Below are positions 2,728 to 44,261 of a stretch of DNA of 64,000 nucleotides, piece after piece. Below the pieces are notes generated by a model that worked only from the letters and a program-made list of their open reading frames with translations, made no database searches and was not told the origin of the DNA. Position numbers and translations under genes: made by a program. Each line of letters starts with the position of its first letter. The stretch's first letter is position 1. Source of the DNA: a virus; the IMG/VR virus record IMGVR_UViG_3300045988_104520; one strand, 5' to 3'.

Positions 2728-3533
2728 TATTAAAAACGACAACCAACGAGTTTTGTTTTATTAACGTAAGTTTCTATGAAACAATAGCAGATCCTCGATA
2801 TTTCTTTGAACAAGATTATGAAGAGATGCCGGAATATGAGGAGGAATTAGATTTTGATTTTGATTCTTATTGCAATAAGTTTATTCCTTTTGCACAGGAA
2901 TGGGCGGATAAGGTGGGCGAACGCCTTTATGAATATGGTGTGAATAACATAAAGGTAATATCGGTAGGACATCCAAAAGAGTACAATTATGGTACTGATT
3001 GGATGGATGTAAGGATAGAGTTTTGTGATGAATGGAGGCAAAAGATGTTATCTAACATTGGTAAGATTGTTAATGATGATAAATGCAAGAAGTATGCGGA
3101 GGCTAATTATCGGTCGGTACCAGGATACATCTTTTTAGGGCCTGAAGATTTAAAGGAATTTGAAAAGAGAATAATAGAAAGAAAGTCGGATTATGGATAT
3201 GATGTAACAATATTATTAAATATGTATCTAACTTTGGCTTTTGTAAAAGAATTTGGATTTAAGGCCGGAGAAGCGTGGAGTGAAATAACAGAATATGCTT
3301 ACGGATGTTTGTCGTATTCCAATTTTGCAACAACAGAGATGCTTATACCAGAAGGTTCGGAGCATTTATTCAAAGACATTTACACGGCAAAGGCCGACGA
3401 ATTATATCATCATGTCCTGGATAAATTCGGATGGGCGTGGCGTGATCCGAAATATAAGTCAGAAACAGAATTATGCGCAATGTTAAAATGGGCAAAAGAA
3501 AAAGGCTTGACCATTGAAGAGTTAAGTATTTAA
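2724..3533 (+). CDS. Hypothetical protein (269 aa)
   Basis: Long intact ORF; ATGA overlap with the upstream gene. Confidence 0.6.
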   Translation: MILKTTTNEFCFINVSFYETIADPRYFFEQDYEEMPEYEEELDFDFDSYCNKFIPFAQEWADKVGERLYEYGVNNIKVISVGHPKEYNYGTDWMDVRIEFCDEWRQKMLSNIGKIVNDDKCKKYAEANYRSVPGYIFLGPEDLKEFEKRIIERKSDYGYDVTILLNMYLTLAFVKEFGFKAGEAWSEITEYAYGCLSYSNFATTEMLIPEGSEHLFKDIYTAKADELYHHVLDKFGWAWRDPKYKSETELCAMLKWAKEKGLTIEELSI

Positions 3534-3560
3534 TTGTTAAACATAAGGCAGTAGTGGTGC

Positions 3561-3845
3561 GTGAGTATAGGTGCTGCCGTTAAAATATTTTATAAGATGA
3601 AAAAAGAAGAGATTCAAACTATTTTATACACAATCAAAGAAGGAGACAGTATTAAGATCAAAGTACAAGACAAAAGTGAAGAGATAAGACTGCGGGATCA
3701 TGTAAGAAGAACGCAGAAATACGGATACAGATTTTGTTTGTCTCATTTGCATGATGGAATTTTCTACTTGGAGAAGTTGGAAGAAGGGGATAAGGATAAA
3801 TACTATAGAGTAATAAACAGAGGAAATGGAAAGACCGGAGTATAA
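3561..3845 (+). CDS. Hypothetical protein (GTG start)
   Basis: ORF tiling. Confidence 0.45.
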   Translation: MSIGAAVKIFYKMKKEEIQTILYTIKEGDSIKIKVQDKSEEIRLRDHVRRTQKYGYRFCLSHLHDGIFYLEKLEEGDKDKYYRVINRGNGKTGV

Positions 3846-4119
3846 TAAGTTACGCAAAATGGCTAAGACTACTCCAGGTCTGATAGTGGACGAGGCGCAA
3901 AACATGATGCGTGTATCGCTATACGATAATGGGGAACTTAAGAAGGTGGTAGTAGTAATGAAATGCGATTCTTTTTTACAGTCAAAAAGTAACATAGAAA
4001 AGATAATGTTATTATCATCTTCTATAGAAGATAGAAAAAACAAAGAAAAAAATAAAACAAAATCAGAAAATGAACAGAATAACAAAAATAAGAGAAGAAA
4101 TAGGAGGAAAACAGGTTGA
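3826..4119 (+). CDS. Hypothetical protein with Lys/Asn/Arg-rich basic tail
   Basis: ORF; C-terminus KNKEKNKTKSENEQNNKNKRRNRRK. Confidence 0.45.
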   Translation: MERPEYNKLRKMAKTTPGLIVDEAQNMMRVSLYDNGELKKVVVVMKCDSFLQSKSNIEKIMLLSSSIEDRKNKEKNKTKSENEQNNKNKRRNRRKTG

Positions 4120-4453
4120 TTTGACCTTTTACGGGCGCTTTTGCAGCCTTATCGAAGGTGATAGAAAGATAATACTAAGGGCGATAAAAAACGGTCGTAA
4201 AAAAGGCGTAATCGGAGCCATTCAGCCTGGAAGACATGATAGAATTTGGACCACATGGTCTATTGCTTTTGATGATCTGGAGGTAGGGGATACGGTAGAG
4301 TTCACTACATCTGGAAAATACAATCCCGGATTTCATACTACGGAAACGTATGTAGGGTGTGTAGAATGGATAAAAGGATCGGAATGTGCGATAAAAACCG
4401 GTAAGGGAATAGCAGTAGTATTAATTAAACACGTAGAAAGGGTAGTAAAATGA
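4070..4453 (+). CDS. Hypothetical protein
   Basis: ORF tiling. Confidence 0.5.
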   Translation: MNRITKIREEIGGKQVDLTFYGRFCSLIEGDRKIILRAIKNGRKKGVIGAIQPGRHDRIWTTWSIAFDDLEVGDTVEFTTSGKYNPGFHTTETYVGCVEWIKGSECAIKTGKGIAVVLIKHVERVVK

Positions 4454-4734
4454 TGGGGTTGAGAGAATTTGTAGAACTTTTTGACAAGAATGAAGTAAAG
4501 AATTTGTTTAATGCATTGTCTTCATGTATAGAATACGTAAGGATAGATTTGCATGTATTTAATATAGGTGCTCATGTTGCGTGTCTGTACAGTAATGATC
4601 CTGAATTGCTTTCACAGGCAGAAGGTTGTAATGTGAATATGATAATAGAGGTGCCCTACTTGTTTGAAGCATTTATGGAATACGCTTCACCGGAACTGAA
4701 AGCTTATTATGATGAACTAACAAAAGAAGTATGA
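4450..4734 (+). CDS. Hypothetical protein
   Basis: ATGA start/stop overlap with the upstream gene. Confidence 0.55.
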   Translation: MMGLREFVELFDKNEVKNLFNALSSCIEYVRIDLHVFNIGAHVACLYSNDPELLSQAEGCNVNMIIEVPYLFEAFMEYASPELKAYYDELTKEV

Positions 4735-5213
4735 AAGAGGAAGTAGAACGGATAAAGAAGTTGGTAGGCATAGATCATAACAGATGGGAGCAACCTTGTA
4801 CATGTGATAAATGCAAGAACATGTGTAAGGTCCCTTGTATTGGTACGCCAAAAGACATAGAAGCTATCATAGATGCAGGATATGCTGACAGGCTAAAAGA
4901 GACAATGTGGATGGTGGGGTATCTTGCAGTGAAAGAAAAACCAATAGCGATGATCCAGCCAACAGAAAAAGACGGGTGGTGCGCATTCCGCCAGCCGGAC
5001 GGTCTCTGCGAGCTGCATGACCGCGGACTAAAGCCGACTGAAGGAGTTCTGGCTTCTTGCAAGGTGGTTGAAGAAGACGATATTCCAACATACGAGACAT
5101 CCGTACTTAGAGCGGTAGCCCACGAGTGGGTTAAGGTAGAGAACTTCGCAACTATAATGAGGGTCGTTTTTAAATACTTGCATTACAATGAACGTAGAGA
5201 ACAAGATAAATAA
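4731..5213 (+). CDS. Hypothetical Cys-rich protein
   Basis: CTCDKCKNMCKVPC cluster; ATGA overlap. Confidence 0.55.
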   Translation: MKEEVERIKKLVGIDHNRWEQPCTCDKCKNMCKVPCIGTPKDIEAIIDAGYADRLKETMWMVGYLAVKEKPIAMIQPTEKDGWCAFRQPDGLCELHDRGLKPTEGVLASCKVVEEDDIPTYETSVLRAVAHEWVKVENFATIMRVVFKYLHYNERREQDK

Positions 5214-5592
5214 GATAGCTAAGATCTTAAAAGAAAAAGGATTTATTGTGTATAAGAAAGGCGGAAAGGAACCAGGTGTGTTTTACGCCAAAGAAGGTGA
5301 CAGCCGGATAGGATTCGTTTATCCCAACAACGGATATATATACGACAGGATAAAGATGTGGTCTTTTTCAAGGATATATAAACCACATAAGAAAACCGGA
5401 TCTTCGTGTTTAATGTGTGTCAGCGACGAATTTACTATAGAAAATGCGATTAAGAACATAGGGGATAGACTGTGGGTAAATTATATAAAAGATGGTAACA
5501 GAAAACGACCAGAAGAATATAAAAATATAAGAGAATTTGTTGGTAGCTTCACTAAATTCTACAACTCTGTAGAATTAGTTGAGGTTAAGTAG
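5188..5592 (+). CDS. Hypothetical protein
   Basis: ORF; followed by a strong terminator. Confidence 0.55.
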   Translation: MNVENKINKIAKILKEKGFIVYKKGGKEPGVFYAKEGDSRIGFVYPNNGYIYDRIKMWSFSRIYKPHKKTGSSCLMCVSDEFTIENAIKNIGDRLWVNYIKDGNRKRPEEYKNIREFVGSFTKFYNSVELVEVK

Positions 5593-5613
5593 TTTTCCAT
5601 GTAAGTTAGTTAC

Positions 5614-38762: not shown

Positions 38763-38797
38763 TTTGACATACTCCCATCGCTAAAGCAAATGGGATT
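38763..38797 (+). repeat. 35-nt conserved element, copy 2 (TTTGACATACTCCCATCGCTAAAGCAAATGGGATT)
   Basis: 33/35 identical to 7651-7685, same orientation; lies in an intergenic gap of the minus block. Confidence 0.75.
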
Positions 38798-38963
38798 CTT
38801 GGATACAAACGCAAGAAACCCCGATATTACTATCGCTGGAATTACTCTTGCTTTCCAATTCGGAAATGCCCTTCCGAAGAATATTTACTGGACCGTGAGG
38901 CTTGTTCTTGTGATCTTGAACCCATATAGCTGCACATACAACAATTTCCTTATCACACATAAT

Positions 38964-39239
38964 TTACATATTTAAAATACCGTTTTTACCAATATGCTTC
39001 TTTTCTTCTTCAGTAGGCCATTCTTTCTTGAACCTACCATGCCACGTTCCAGGAACCACCACCAGTTTATCATCCTTATCATATTCAATAGCGGCACATT
39101 CAGAACAAAGAGGCTTGCCTTCATATCCCTTTAGCGACTTATCGTAAATACGATTCTTACAAGGTCTTATAAGAGCCCAGTAATATGATGTGGCTGTATT
39201 ATCTATACAGCCACACTTTGAACATACAAACAAACTCAT
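38964..39239 (-). CDS. Zn-ribbon small protein
   Basis: CSKCGC...CSECA. Confidence 0.5.
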   Translation of the reverse strand: MSLFVCSKCGCIDNTATSYYWALIRPCKNRIYDKSLKGYEGKPLCSECAAIEYDKDDKLVVVPGTWHGRFKKEWPTEEEKKHIGKNGILNM

Positions 39240-40015
39240 CCCGCAATCTCCCAGTCATTAGACATAATATCATGTTCGGTTGGATTCCAATTTGATGCTA
39301 CTTTTTGACCTGTATCTATCATCAATATATTTACGTCAAACATACAGATATACTTTTTACCCCAATCGATTCTTTTTATCTTACGACCTAATTTAAGCCG
39401 TTCTAAAGCCTGTTCGAATGTCATGCCATGACGAGGCAGTTTGAGATACTTTTCAAGTCTGTCGGAGGCTTCATTTGGTGTATGGCCATCGTATTCGAAA
39501 GCGGTTTCTCTTTCAGGAACATCAAACAAATCCCAGTATTTGCTTTCATAGTGATTAGATACCTGACCGGTAGGTAGGATCGCCATCACAATAAACCAAT
39601 CATCAGAACCGAAGCATTTTTCTCCATCGCTGTGTCTCCTTGATTTGCAAACTTCAACCTGTCCGTTTCTGGCTAATAGATTAAAGAAGGCAGCGTTATA
39701 CAACATGCGATACCGATACAATTCATTGAAAGTGTGGTATCCGTCAGAGACTTCTCCCACGTCTACAGGCTTCTTGTTTTGAATACTACCCAAAATATTC
39801 TCTATATAGAGCTGTATTTTATACATACCCATTTCGGTGTGGCCGTATTTGTTCAAGATATTATTGACATCGTATTGTATATTAAAATCTTTTTCAAATT
39901 CTACTTCAGGATGATTAGGATAGTAGTAATCTACTGATGCTTCTAACACAGACTTGATATGCTCTACTATTCTCGTGGCATCATCATGTTTAAAAAAAAT
40001 GCTTAATTCCTTCAA
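39236..40015 (-). CDS. Two-domain protein with C-terminal DUF2829-like domain
   Basis: C-terminus MTFEQALERLKLGRKIKRIDWGKK...NPTEHDIMSNDWEI matches the DUF2829 pattern (M.F..AlE.LK.GkK..R..W ... DlL..DWEl). Confidence 0.55.
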   Translation of the reverse strand: MKELSIFFKHDDATRIVEHIKSVLEASVDYYYPNHPEVEFEKDFNIQYDVNNILNKYGHTEMGMYKIQLYIENILGSIQNKKPVDVGEVSDGYHTFNELYRYRMLYNAAFFNLLARNGQVEVCKSRRHSDGEKCFGSDDWFIVMAILPTGQVSNHYESKYWDLFDVPERETAFEYDGHTPNEASDRLEKYLKLPRHGMTFEQALERLKLGRKIKRIDWGKKYICMFDVNILMIDTGQKVASNWNPTEHDIMSNDWEIAG

Positions 40016-40126
40016 CGAATTTAATATCTTCGTTGATTGCTGATTCGAACTCTTCTTTTGTCATCACTCTAATTACATCTTTTTTAAAATCGTCTAATCC
40101 CATGATTTGTTTCAAATTAATTGTTA

Positions 40127-40762
40127 CTATACTTTCTTTATCCTACAATACAAACCCCATAAGAACTCAGCAGAAAAACCATCCCATACATTATTCTTCT
40201 GCCAAAGTTCTACTTTGTTAATAAACCAAGACCATGTGGGACCCTCATATGAAGAATCAGATGATGATCCCAATCCGATTTTCTCTATTTCATTCGCTAC
40301 ATCAGAATAAGGATCTAAATCGACTCCCCTAATCATATTAATAATATCATCCTTGTCTAACGTAAATTGAAACCGCTCCTTGTTAGTAGGCTGATCTTGA
40401 TTCAATTTACCAGTCGCAAGCCATTCTCCATCATGATACAATTCGGCAAGTTTCTTTACCTTATTTTTAAGAAAATAATACTCTTGTATGACTTCTATAA
40501 AATCAGCTTCGTTAGCTTTACCCTCTATGAAGATAACGGTTTTGCTTCCAGGTCTATGATCGTCTAAGCTTGCCGGGATTCCCAATATCGTCCATCCTTT
40601 AAACTCAGCTATCTTAAAACGCATGACATCAAACACCTTATAGAAATCATCACAATCTATAGATTCTATTACCTTAATATCCTCTTCCGTAAATTTACCT
40701 CGTATTGGAATAACGTGATGACCAGGACAGCCATCGGTTCCTAAATATGCGATTCTAACCAC
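40127..40762 (-). CDS. Hypothetical protein (211 aa)
   Basis: ORF. Confidence 0.55.
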   Translation of the reverse strand: MVRIAYLGTDGCPGHHVIPIRGKFTEEDIKVIESIDCDDFYKVFDVMRFKIAEFKGWTILGIPASLDDHRPGSKTVIFIEGKANEADFIEVIQEYYFLKNKVKKLAELYHDGEWLATGKLNQDQPTNKERFQFTLDKDDIINMIRGVDLDPYSDVANEIEKIGLGSSSDSSYEGPTWSWFINKVELWQKNNVWDGFSAEFLWGLYCRIKKV

Positions 40763-42078: not shown

Positions 42079-42447
42079 TCAATAAGAACGACCTCTGCCA
42101 CGTCCGCGACCTCTACGCATCTGAGGTCCGTCACCGTAGTATCTGTCGTCTCCATAGTAATCGGTCGGGTAGGATTCGTAACCCATCCTCCGGTATTCCC
42201 GGTCCTCCATTTCATGACGACGTTCGCGCTCTTCGAGCCTTCTTTCCCTTTCTTCCAGCTCGTTTTCGCGCTCTTCCATTTCTTTCATCTTCTCATGCAT
42301 ACCGTAATGGTCGTAAATACCACCACCATACCCCATGTACGTCCCATCAGAACGCCGGCTTCTGCCTCTGCCTCCACCTCGTCTGTCTTCTATCTCGTCA
42401 TATCCAGGATATTCTCTGTGTCCTGAATTTAAATCATATACTATCAT
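42079..42447 (-). CDS. Low-complexity RGG/RG- and ER-repeat protein
   Basis: RRGGGRGRSRRSDG, EERENELEERERRLEERERRHEMEDREYRR and RRGRGRGRGRSY read from the translation. Confidence 0.4.
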   Translation of the reverse strand: MIVYDLNSGHREYPGYDEIEDRRGGGRGRSRRSDGTYMGYGGGIYDHYGMHEKMKEMEERENELEERERRLEERERRHEMEDREYRRMGYESYPTDYYGDDRYYGDGPQMRRGRGRGRGRSY

Positions 42448-43391: not shown

Positions 43392-44261
43392 CTATTTTAG
43401 AAACACATTTTTGAGTTTTCCTTTTATACCATTTAAGGTCACTTCATATCCGGAGCCTGTCATGTATATGGTTTGTTGATTGATTCTATCACCAGAATAC
43501 TTATCTATGAAATAAGACCTATACACTCCATACCCTTTAACTACAACATTGCTATATAGCTCCCATTTGCCAAGACCGTTCCTAAACATGAATTTAGCTT
43601 CTTCAAGGAATGAGCGAAGATTCTTTTCAGCAATAATAACACCATTTTGCTCTAACTTCTTTGCAATATCACGAATCAGCCACATATTGTTATGGTCTAC
43701 TTTCCTAAAAGACTCGGCAAATTCTACATCGGGCTTGTGTTCTTCTATTGTTTTCAAAGCTTGTTGCTTCTCTGCCTCTGCCTGCGACTTTTCGGCTATA
43801 GCTTTTTGAGCAGCTTCATATTGATCAGCCCAGGCTCTTGCTGCATCTGCCGGATTAGAAAAGTCAGGGACCAAAATTCCCTTTCCACCGGAACTTGTTT
43901 TATATTCTCCTGTTTTACGAATAGAAGGAAGAACCTCAGATGTTACCCATTTCTTAAATCTCTTAGCAGACTCTAATTTTGAAGATAATATAAGAGAATA
44001 TAAACCAGATTCATTAATTATTCTTATACTATCTATATATCTGGTTTTCAATATAGATCGTTTTACGCCCCATTGATTATCAGATACTTGCAAAAGCATA
44101 GAATCATCATCATCTACATGTCTTTTTACCGCATCTTTAGCATTTATATATCCAAGAGATTTAGCCACATCTGACGCCACAAACCAAACATCTCCTTTTG
44201 GATCTACAATAATTCTAAGCTCTCCAAAATCCGAACTTTCAAAAACAGAAACTTTATCCAT
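43392..44261 (-). CDS. Bro-N domain protein (phage anti-repressor-like)
   Basis: FGELRIIVDPKGDVWFVASDVAKSLGY...INESGLYSLILSSKLESAKRFKKWVTSEVLPSIRKTGEY matches the Bro-N consensus closely. Confidence 0.8.
   Translation of the reverse strand: MDKVSVFESSDFGELRIIVDPKGDVWFVASDVAKSLGYINAKDAVKRHVDDDDSMLLQVSDNQWGVKRSILKTRYIDSIRIINESGLYSLILSSKLESAKRFKKWVTSEVLPSIRKTGEYKTSSGGKGILVPDFSNPADAARAWADQYEAAQKAIAEKSQAEAEKQQALKTIEEHKPDVEFAESFRKVDHNNMWLIRDIAKKLEQNGVIIAEKNLRSFLEEAKFMFRNGLGKWELYSNVVVKGYGVYRSYFIDKYSGDRINQQTIYMTGSGYEVTLNGIKGKLKNVFLK

Follow-up and report, generated by a model that had tools for sequence, protein, structure and literature searches.

Phages are known to counter Thoeris, CBASS and Pycsar chiefly with sponges and signal-cleaving enzymes, and looking at the fusion partners of known sponges has recently led to new families. 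According to the literature, the DUF2829 protein Tad2 sequesters 1''-3' gcADPR, so the sequence-only reading of the present locus, which named Tad2 as a DUF2829 signal sponge, was right. The founding DUF2829 sponge for this molecule is SPO1 Tad2 (gp34.65; PDB 8SME/8SMF/8SMG, 8WJE). Its gcADPR pocket lies between non-dimeric protomers interlocking along helix α1, receives contributions from the β1-β2 loop, β3-β4 and the region of α3, and has the ligand residues W25, N26, W73, D79, T78, I63 and T65, and an insertion between β2 and β3 carrying α2 forms the V-shaped dimer interface. HgmTad2, also known as AcrIIA7 (PDB 8KBI-8KBM, 8WJC), originates from Bacteroides phages of the human gut, the hosts of which rely on cGG-CBASS with TIR-STING, and it binds both gcADPR and cGG/cGAMP. 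The ligand residues are W21, N22, G23, W87, S90, T92 and D93, the W21A/N22A double mutant shows a markedly reduced gcADPR binding, and a 41-residue insertion (32-72) builds the cyclic-dinucleotide pocket. ModTad2 (PDB 9EIB; 8V3E), a stand-alone protein with the W-N-G-K motif, binds His-ADPR as well as cUMP/cCMP. The ligands of the family are thus diverse (3'cADPR, His-ADPR, N7-cADPR, cUMP/cCMP and cyclic dinucleotides), and because its members bind very different signals, a divergent Tad2 pocket can still be a sponge. Sponge domains also work as fusions, as in Acb4-Tad2 (Pasteurella phage Pm86) and Sequestin-Tad2 (Tal et al. 2025 preprint, PMC12265669), Sequestin being a proven 3'cADPR sponge.

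The gene compared here with those systems belongs to a stretch of 64,000 nucleotides from a viral record (IMGVR_UViG_3300045988_104520), referred to as the window. It is called as an ORF of 259 aa on the minus strand (39236-40015), exactly where it had been claimed, with a TTG start and a TGA stop at 39236-39238, and no fewer than 10 independent metagenome contigs carry an ORF call with the identical product. The ORF is composed of a helical leader, a WDGH domain and a minimal Tad2-like domain. The sequence-only reading had described the first ~190 aa as one domain of no known role; the region consists of the leader (aa 1-86; 39758-40015) plus the catalogued, uncharacterised WDGH domain (aa 87-189; 39449-39757, minus strand). 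The leader had no family match in the Pfam scan and is predicted, with low confidence (pLDDT 36-87), to form helices at residues 10-26, 46-57 and 61-79. It includes a lineage-specific 41-aa insertion (KDFNIQYD...SIQNKK, aa 42-82; 39770-39892) which, in protein alignments, is missing in phage csAssE-Sib and many other alleles. Regarding the surroundings, giant ORFs of 2148 and 2239 aa, the first matching a 'virion structural protein' PHROG, lie on both flanks, and the gene sits within an island of small accessory genes inside this virion-gene block, as had been proposed; the Bro-N/ANT gene (43392-44261) shares the island, but it is 3.4 kb away and not adjacent as had been stated. PADLOC and NCBIfam gave no matches for the gene or its two neighbours.

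The assignment of the last ~65 aa to DUF2829 is borne out by both profile and fold. Residues 198-257 match PF11195 ('Thoeris anti-defense 2-like domain') at E 6.1e-11 and 43.1 bits, above the gathering score of 25, covering profile positions 1-72 of 73, and the domain extends over aa 198-259 (39239-39424, minus strand). When the 64-aa C-terminus was searched by sequence against the PDB, the best match was SPO1 Tad2 (8sme, E 2.5e-5), and Tad2 8v3e, ModTad2 9eib, HgmTad2/AcrIIA7 8kbi and SptTad2 8wjd were also matched. The predicted structure has the topology α1-β1-β2-β3-β4-α3-β5, so that the Tad2 core fold (α1, antiparallel β-sheet, α3 and β5) is contained in the C-terminal 62 residues, including all elements that form the gcADPR pocket in SPO1 Tad2: helix α1, the β1-β2 loop, β3-β4 and the α3 region. 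Nevertheless, it is not a short stand-alone protein of about 90-105 aa, such as the 89-aa SPO1 Tad2, but the end of a fusion of 259 aa, or 288 aa in its intact form. Likewise, a two-residue turn (D227-V228) joins β2 to β3 in place of the usual insertion of 24-41 residues, which corresponds to residues 36-59, with α2, in SPO1 Tad2, to residues 32-72 in HgmTad2 and to ~24 residues in ModTad2, the latter sharing 27% identity with the domain described here.

Concerning the ligand residues, SPO1 W25, W73, D79, I63 and T65 correspond to W218, W243, D249, I233 and T235; taken together, the ligand residues of SPO1 Tad2 and HgmTad2 align with positions W218, G219, W243, D249, H248, I233 and T235. The Trp-Trp-Asp core, which in both of these proteins clamps signals derived from ADP-ribose, is conserved among 68 distinct WDGH-linked copies (W218 in 67/68, W243 in 63/66 and D249 in 66/66). 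However, the phosphate-binding asparagine (SPO1 N26, HgmTad2 N22), part of the G-W-N-G-K sequence present in all the solved Tad2 proteins matched, is replaced by G219 in the window (W218-G219-K220), and SPO1 T78, D67 and H71 are replaced by H248, Gln and Ser, respectively. In the WDGH-linked copies the residue at this position is most often N (26 copies), followed by G (22) and K (13). The loss of both the asparagine and the insertion points to an altered specificity rather than to cyclic-dinucleotide binding of the HgmTad2 type, and cGG binding in particular is not expected because the 41-residue insertion is missing. The family membership, the link of that family to signal sponging and the conservation of the clamp residues all hold, and a sponge role for the module is plausible, so that the sequence-only reading is supported in part.

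The central domain matches PF25311 over its full length and with a high score (E 4.1e-36, 123.6 bits, cut-off 27). It is modelled confidently (pLDDT 95) as an α+β fold with a long helix, a three-stranded sheet and a C-terminal helix, and it possesses all the invariant residues of the family: D91, G92, H94, T95, F96, E98, L99, Y100, R103, S125, H128, D130, G131, G150, H155, D176 and H178. These are arranged in the motifs SDGYHTFxELYxxR and KSxxHxDG, a histidine in the third β-strand (SNHY in this clade) and WDGH. Members of PF25311 include Listeria phage A511 gp21, P100 gp128, Salmonella phage c341 gene 6, Bacillus phage Nate gp134 and a protein of Lactococcus phage P092, and the residues D91, H94, E98, R103, S125, H128, D130, H155, D176 and H178 are common to A511 gp21, c341 gene 6 and Nate gp134. 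The family is large, clustering at 50% identity giving over 3,700 representatives, and its members are usually stand-alone proteins of ~110-150 aa encoded by phages and prophages across many phyla. Identity stays at 50-74% between sequences from Bacteroidota, Bacilli, Actinomycetota and Vibrio, and extends even to a Methanobrevibacter MAG. Most members stand alone or carry other extensions, in contrast to the leader and Tad2-like flank seen here. A 2H-phosphoesterase was considered for WDGH due to the His-Thr pairs H94-T95 and H178-T179, and rejected, since 2H enzymes have the motif H-x-T/S and the fold searches gave no match. Neither a sequence relative nor a similar solved fold was found for WDGH in the PDB, including the solved signal-degrading or signal-sequestering anti-defence folds other than Tad2, and profile and fold searches matched no metabolic enzyme family. 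Literature searches for the domain, PF25311 and its sequence motifs, as well as for csAssE-Sib, retrieved nothing relevant.

As seen in a Pfam scan of 146 WDGH representatives, a Tad2-like domain is present in only two, and the partner regions are almost all unannotated. In other gut phages WDGH is also joined to Sequestin and a long Tad2, and relatives carrying WDGH-Sequestin-Tad2 resemble the known Sequestin-Tad2 fusions. The gene of the window likewise resembles Acb4-Tad2 and Sequestin-Tad2 in having a Tad2 domain and another small phage domain in one polypeptide, differing in that the partner is WDGH, a candidate sponge or enzyme. Besides, WDGH is α+β, whereas Sequestin is all-α, and it is far more conserved than the known sponges. 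In cultured phages and prophages WDGH genes are placed in accessory or early regions, and a census of neighbour domains at 80 bacterial WDGH loci revealed no recurrent partner, the neighbours being generic prophage early/replication genes (Lsr2, HNH, PNKP, D5_N/VapE and YopX).

The two domains differ in their evolution. WDGH has a dN/dS of 0.04-0.11, compared to 0.19-0.22 for the Tad2-like module, which is under purifying selection yet diverges rapidly. Close relatives have gained, lost and swapped this module as a cassette, the behaviour to be expected of arms-race cargo. Relatives with nonsense or deletion alleles retain WDGH and lose the Tad2-like part, and sequence comparison shows that WDGH, and not the Tad2-like module, is the conserved core of the gene.

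Taken as a whole, we consider the product to be a modular accessory protein (leader, WDGH, minimal Tad2-like) for which counter-defence is the most likely role, and a candidate sponge, although this is proposed tentatively, with a little under an even chance of being correct. In such a protein, the Tad2-like modules of different protomers would pair through helix α1 (present in the model, which is of a single chain), and this pairing would form inter-protomer pockets sequestering a nucleotide-derived immune signal, so that the host effector is kept off. An ADPR-type molecule would be the most likely ligand. WDGH would then act as a second, independent module in the same conflict, possibly destroying what the sponge captures or hitting another pathway. 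The composition of its invariant cluster (four His, three Asp, one Glu) suggests that WDGH either catalyses a metal-dependent reaction or binds a universal nucleotide metabolite tightly. Several features count against this proposal: the Tad2-like module is devoid of the β2-β3 insertion and of the diphosphate-binding asparagine, few WDGH representatives carry a Tad2-like domain, WDGH resembles no solved sponge or signal-degrading enzyme in fold or sequence, the natural nonsense and deletion alleles show that the Tad2-like module is dispensable, and the gene is located in the late-strand virion block with no obvious early operon.

A bolder extension of this proposal, which we regard as possible but doubtful, is that WDGH represents a large unrecognised family of phage counter-defence proteins, acting on a universal nucleotide-derived immune signal, or on the precursor of one, as a metal-dependent enzyme or as a sponge, with a fold that is new relative to solved structures, the gene being then a two-headed inhibitor. 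Its fusions to Tad2-like domains and to Sequestin would be the same guilt-by-fusion signature that revealed Sequestin, and the domain suits that search logic, being small, phage-borne and fused to two proven sponge families; however, the argument relies on a small fraction of the family, as only 2/146 representatives carry a Tad2-like domain. An action on immune signals would place WDGH among the most widespread counter-defence modules. The minimal Tad2-like module, in turn, raises the questions of what minimum of the Tad2 fold is needed to make a ligand pocket and of the ligand preferred by a W-G compared to a W-N pocket.

The strongest alternative assigns the main job to WDGH and separates it from signal interception: the domain would participate in nucleotide or RNA metabolism, or in the takeover of a universally conserved host component, and the minimal Tad2-like module would be an exchangeable tuner for oligomerisation or ligand sensing. 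It accounts for the low dN/dS of WDGH, its high identity from Bacteroidota to the Methanobrevibacter MAG, its mostly stand-alone occurrence (144/146 representatives without a Tad2-like domain), the early/replication character of its neighbours, the absence of both insertion and asparagine from the Tad2-like module, and the relatives that keep WDGH and lose that module. On the other hand, a module that keeps a Trp-Trp-Asp core invariant or nearly so under purifying selection is hard to explain as a mere spacer, the fusion to Sequestin links WDGH to a second proven sponge, and WDGH matches no metabolic enzyme family. This alternative is judged rather unlikely, though worth serious consideration. 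Should WDGH prove unrelated to defence, the result comes down to an ordinary DUF2829 annotation within a modular accessory gene.

A further matter is whether the allele of the window is expressed at all. DNA alignment with csAssE-Sib locates a homopolymer of eight T (39992-39999, minus strand; A8 on the plus strand) in which one extra T, compared to the in-frame T7, splits the gene, the 259-aa ORF being its 3' part. In csAssE-Sib and many metagenomic alleles the tract is T7 and continues in frame into a 37-aa N-terminal extension. In the window, this extension is an upstream 37-aa ORF, MGLDDFKKDVIRVMTKEEFESAINEDIKFVEGIKHFF followed by a stop (39990-40102, minus strand; given in the ORF list as 41 aa from a TTG at 40115), which overlaps the 259-aa ORF by 26 nt, corresponds to the N-terminus of the intact 288-aa product in the alignment to the csAssE-Sib protein WOZ57315.1, and appears among the gene calls of sister contigs with the same length of 37 aa. 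The first eight residues of the leader (MKELSIFF) are thus in a shifted frame compared to intact alleles. Among 42 fetched loci with the motif, the tract was T7 in 24, T8 in 15 and T6 in three, though 10 of the 15 T8 loci were fetched via T8 products themselves; IMG/VR relatives alone gave T7 in 23, T8 in five and T6 in three. T8 also occurs in a second, diverged lineage, indexed in 52 blocks of the collection, and the upstream ORF (33-37 aa) remains open in both T8 lineages. A programmed +1 frameshift at UUU_UAA was considered, since a slip would restore ...KHFFKHDD... and T8 occurs in two lineages; it was set aside because T6 alleles also occur, ordinary variation in homopolymer length being the simpler reading.

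From these data it could be argued that in the genome of the window the gene is decaying or phase-OFF, its native start lost by the frameshift and little or no functional protein made. The T8 tract itself, the variation in tract length among relatives, the TTG as start of the shifted ORF and the nonsense and deletion alleles of the Tad2-like part agree with this, as do variants in which the whole gene is deleted and its N-terminus joined to a Y16D-like gene, or in which the Bro-N gene is joined to the Y16D-like gene. However, the 259-aa ORF is fully open and still encodes both domains intact, in-frame ATGs (M62 and M64) precede WDGH, and no fewer than 10 contigs from different samples, as well as the second lineage, retain the split allele. 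Expression could also be restored by reinitiation, ribosomal +1 slippage on UUU_UAA or transcriptional slippage, and we consider loss of function improbable. Least credible, to the point of being very improbable, is an AcrIIA7-like anti-CRISPR activity, suggested by AcrIIA7 being a human-gut-metagenome DUF2829 protein, as only the DUF2829 fold is held in common, Cas9 binding was never shown, and later work failed to see Cas9 inhibited by HgmTad2 or by further Tad2 homologues, whether in vitro or in vivo, and placed the family among the signal sponges instead.

Immediately downstream, a Cys-rich gene of 91 aa (38964-39239, minus strand; phrog_11861, function not assigned) has its ATG overlapping the TGA of the 259-aa ORF (ATGA), and it is probably translationally coupled to it. 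This small gene accompanies the WDGH-Tad2-like gene in relatives, its position being kept in csAssE-Sib and in metagenome contigs.

The target gene (39236..40015, minus strand) is a 259-aa ORF starting from TTG. It encodes a WDGH domain (PF25311) at residues 87-189 (Pfam E 4.1e-36, 123.6 bits), followed at residues 198-257 by a Tad2-like domain (PF11195, the renamed DUF2829; E 6.1e-11, 43.1 bits, relative to a gathering score of 25). The latter match bears out the sequence-only reading that the last ~65 aa fit DUF2829, and the primary paper confirms its further statement that the gcADPR sponge Tad2 belongs to DUF2829. Recognizing this domain is routine, because the record of the phage csAssE-Sib already bears the label. 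The same reading had assigned a ~190-aa N-terminal domain of unknown function; residues 87-189 of this part belong unambiguously to WDGH, a family with no known function, and residues 1-86 have no family match, being modelled as low-confidence helices in the structure prediction. The PHROGs matches of the protein are to 'unknown function' families only, and PADLOC and NCBIfam searches found nothing. As a whole, the earlier observation was correct, and its interpretation as an anti-defence sponge was sustained in part.

Both its profile match and its fold place the Tad2-like module firmly in the family, though as a minimal, divergent variant rather than a typical Tad2, because two tested features of the characterized sponges, the insertion and the Asn, are absent from it. 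The ligand contacts published for SPO1 Tad2 (W25, N26, W73, D79, T78, I63 and T65, with D67, H71 and S76 as water ligands) and HgmTad2 (W21, N22, G23, W87, S90, T92 and D93) were mapped onto the window protein via HMMER alignments. Thus, W25, I63, T65, W73 and D79 of SPO1 Tad2 are kept as W218, I233, T235, W243 and D249, respectively, and S76 is conservatively replaced by T246; N26 is lost (G219), and D67, H71 and T78 are changed to Q237, S241 and H248. Among 68 distinct WDGH-linked Tad2-like domains, F200, G210, R215, W218, W243, P245, D249, D254 and W255 vary little or not at all, and the first Trp is followed by N in 26 of them, by G in 22 and by K in 13. In contrast to SPO1 Tad2 and HgmTad2, which possess β2-β3 insertions of 24 and 41 residues, respectively, the window module is internally truncated, its β2-β3 link being D227-V228 alone. 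In SPO1 Tad2, the V-shaped dimer takes its helix α2 from this insertion, and in HgmTad2 the insertion makes up the entire cyclic-dinucleotide pocket. The gcADPR pocket is located between non-dimeric protomers interlocking along α1, and is built from the β1-β2 loop, β3-β4 and the α3 region; all of these elements, including α1, are found in the window module.

Pfam and UniProt list the WDGH domain by name ('WDGH domain-containing protein'), and literature searches found no paper mentioning it. A domain-only model built on 69 diverse sequences is highly confident (pLDDT 95.4, pTM 0.85) and combines a three-stranded sheet, which has short bridges, with one long helix and another at the C-terminus. 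A profile search against PDB sequences gave no match, and BFVD returned only other uncharacterized WDGH phage proteins. The family comprises 3,726 cluster representatives at 50% identity and E <= 1e-3, with 417 at E <= 1e-30. The domain is 60-78% identical among proteins of 140-638 aa whose flanks are unrelated, and 50-74% identical to copies in genome contigs (L099-L178) of Vibrio, Bifidobacterium, Nocardia, Streptomyces, Bacteroidota, Bacilli, Saccharimonadales and a Methanobrevibacter MAG; such high conservation across phyla is unusual in a small accessory protein of phages, and may mean that its target or substrate is universal. Even distant phage members share D91, G92, H94, T95, F96, E98, L99, Y100, R103, S125, H128, D130, G131, G150, H155, D176 and H178 as invariant residues; with four His, three Asp and one Glu among them in a stretch of ~100 residues, the domain may bind a metal for catalysis or for structure.

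In those genome contigs, WDGH mostly forms an ORF by itself, of 106-160 aa, adjoining generic prophage early or replication genes. Its carriers among cultured phages include Listeria A511 (gp21) and P100 (gp128), Bacillus Tsamsa-like phages (among them Nate) and Lactococcus P092; in Salmonella P22-like phages, its gene is an insertion that separates the coat-gene terminator from the gene for the gp4-like head-tail adaptor. In Bacillus phage Nate (L007), the WDGH gene gp134 (3348..3803) overlaps the start of the NADAR-family gp135 (3748..4548) by 56 nt, which could reflect a functional tie to ADP-ribose chemistry or a coincidence.

Comparing the window gene with diverged alleles of the same phage group, both domains are under purifying selection, with dN/dS of 0.04-0.11 for WDGH and 0.19-0.22 for the Tad2 module, reaching about 0.5 for the most different cassettes. 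The dS is also 3-4 times higher in the Tad2 part (about 1.2 vs 0.3-0.44 in WDGH), and this higher divergence, dS included, therefore indicates that the C-terminal module is swapped by recombination, leaving WDGH in place. The C-terminal tails of 80 IMG/VR relatives fall into several cassette types: the window type, 'IVES' (+4 aa), 'WGGKYIQMF', 'WKNEHL' with a longer insertion, WDGH-Sequestin-long-Tad2 and, at 16 loci, WDGH without any Tad2. Five close relatives from IMG/VR (L030, L034, L046, L050 and L068) carry a GAA→TAA nonsense change at the codon equivalent to E201 of the window protein (about 39413..39415 in the window), where the Tad2-like domain begins and directly following 'MTF'; unrelated sequence replaces the downstream frame with a different breakpoint in each, so that the Tad2 module is gone and WDGH is intact, L034 also losing the following genes. 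Tad2 thus acts as the cassette and WDGH as the core.

Sequestin (PF21825, formerly 'crAss001_48'), discovered through its fusion to Tad2 and Acb4, has been proven by experiment to sponge 3'cADPR (Tal et al. 2025, preprint, PMC12265669). WDGH is fused both with Tad2-like domains and with Sequestin, and is therefore physically linked to two sponge families, in a small minority of representatives (2/146 and 1/146, respectively, by Pfam scan). The explanation that best joins these data, and which we hold tentatively, is that the Tad2-like module sponges an immune signal and WDGH provides a second activity. The module would assemble via α1 into at least dimers, whose inter-protomer pockets may capture a nucleotide immune signal, of the ADPR type or another, with a specificity expected to differ from those of SPO1 Tad2 and HgmTad2, and WDGH would act independently within the same conflict. 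The main alternative, rather unlikely in our estimate, is that WDGH has a function unrelated to immune signals and carries the exchangeable Tad2 module as a tuning or oligomerization appendage. That WDGH represents a major unrecognized anti-signalling family is likewise doubtful. The literature searchable here contains neither the WDGH-Tad2 architecture, nor an insertion-less Tad2 core, nor an argument that WDGH is a candidate for counter-defence whose fold is new to solved structures.

The integrity of the gene bears on a minor alternative. The closest record, the human-gut phage csAssE-Sib (OR575929.1; 94.7% nucleotide identity over the aligned part), encodes a homologue annotated 'DUF2829' of 251 aa starting with MGLDDFKK. 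In the window, DNA alignment shows a T8 run (39992..39999, minus strand) that is T7 in csAssE-Sib, because of which the csAssE-Sib-type N-terminus lies on a separate 37-aa ORF (39990..40102, minus strand). In-frame alleles are abundant (the metagenomic proteins P0001 and P0003 have 812 and 2,378 member sequences), and the split allele is recurrent, its identical 259-aa product being called in different samples, on 10 contigs or more. A second, diverged lineage has the same T8, its 224-aa product (P0045) being indexed in 52 collection blocks, and in both lineages the ORF of 33-37 aa upstream is open. Among IMG/VR relatives with the motif, 23 have T7, which is in frame, 5 have T8 and 3 have T6. 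The polymorphism, followed over loci L009-L018 and L019-L079, reads as ordinary homopolymer length variation, possibly serving as an ON/OFF or long/short switch; slippage is a less simple but possible reading, as a tRNA-Phe +1 slip on UUU_UAA, or a slip in transcription, would recreate the exact intact ...KHFFKHDD... sequence. That the gene is decayed or phase-OFF in the window genome is improbable; both recognizable domains lie wholly within the 259-aa ORF, where in-frame ATGs (M62 and M64) precede WDGH. An AcrIIA7-like anti-CRISPR role is highly improbable, as the AcrIIA7 activity itself was published as not reproducible.

The window belongs to a ~150-kb-class gut phage, with a plus-strand replication block (helicases and exonuclease) and a minus-strand virion block that includes proteins of 2148 aa, matching a virion-structural PHROG, and 2239 aa. 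Between these two genes, on the late-gene strand, the target occupies an island of small minus-strand ORFs, proposed earlier to be accessory cargo, as its plastic gene content among relatives corroborates. Immediately upstream, co-oriented and with a 24-nt gap, is a 211-aa ORF (40127..40762) with no match in Pfam, PHROGs, PADLOC or NCBIfam, which is absent from csAssE-Sib and present in all sister contigs with the split allele. Immediately downstream, a 91-aa Cys-rich ORF overlaps the target by ATGA, and the island also holds, on the same strand, a DUF7841 ORF and, 3.4 kb from the target, a Bro-N/ANT antirepressor-like gene. A minus-strand ORF of 122 aa (42079..42447) without a family match has a high content of Arg, Glu, Gly and Tyr; its tail reads RGRGRGRGRS, and its core resembles an ERE/RRL repeat. 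In sister contigs L009-L013 (about 4056-5612), a 101-aa PF26092 (T4_Y16D) gene and then an IS605-type OrfB/TnpB follow 3' of the 91-aa gene; the window retains a 59-aa remnant ORF of the T4_Y16D gene (38781..38960, minus strand; MCDKEIVVCAAIWVQD...) and no TnpB, suggesting a transposon-associated rearrangement. The island is recombinationally very plastic.

Some metagenomic relatives (P0007, P0058, P0097, P0076 and P0106) look like natural deletion-fusion variants: P0007 joins the N-terminal part of the Bro-N/ANT gene directly to the target gene, and P0076 and P0106, from which WDGH, Tad2 and the 91-aa gene are deleted, join the target's leader to a Y16D-like domain. Many metagenomic WDGH proteins (P0125-P0266) are mosaics of unannotated modules with recurring linker motifs ('...WLEKQGEQKP...' and '...IDSLQQEQPEVDLEKE...'), resembling polyvalent, shuffled phage proteins, and 69/131 of the N-terminal extensions of metagenomic WDGH proteins fall in one similarity cluster.
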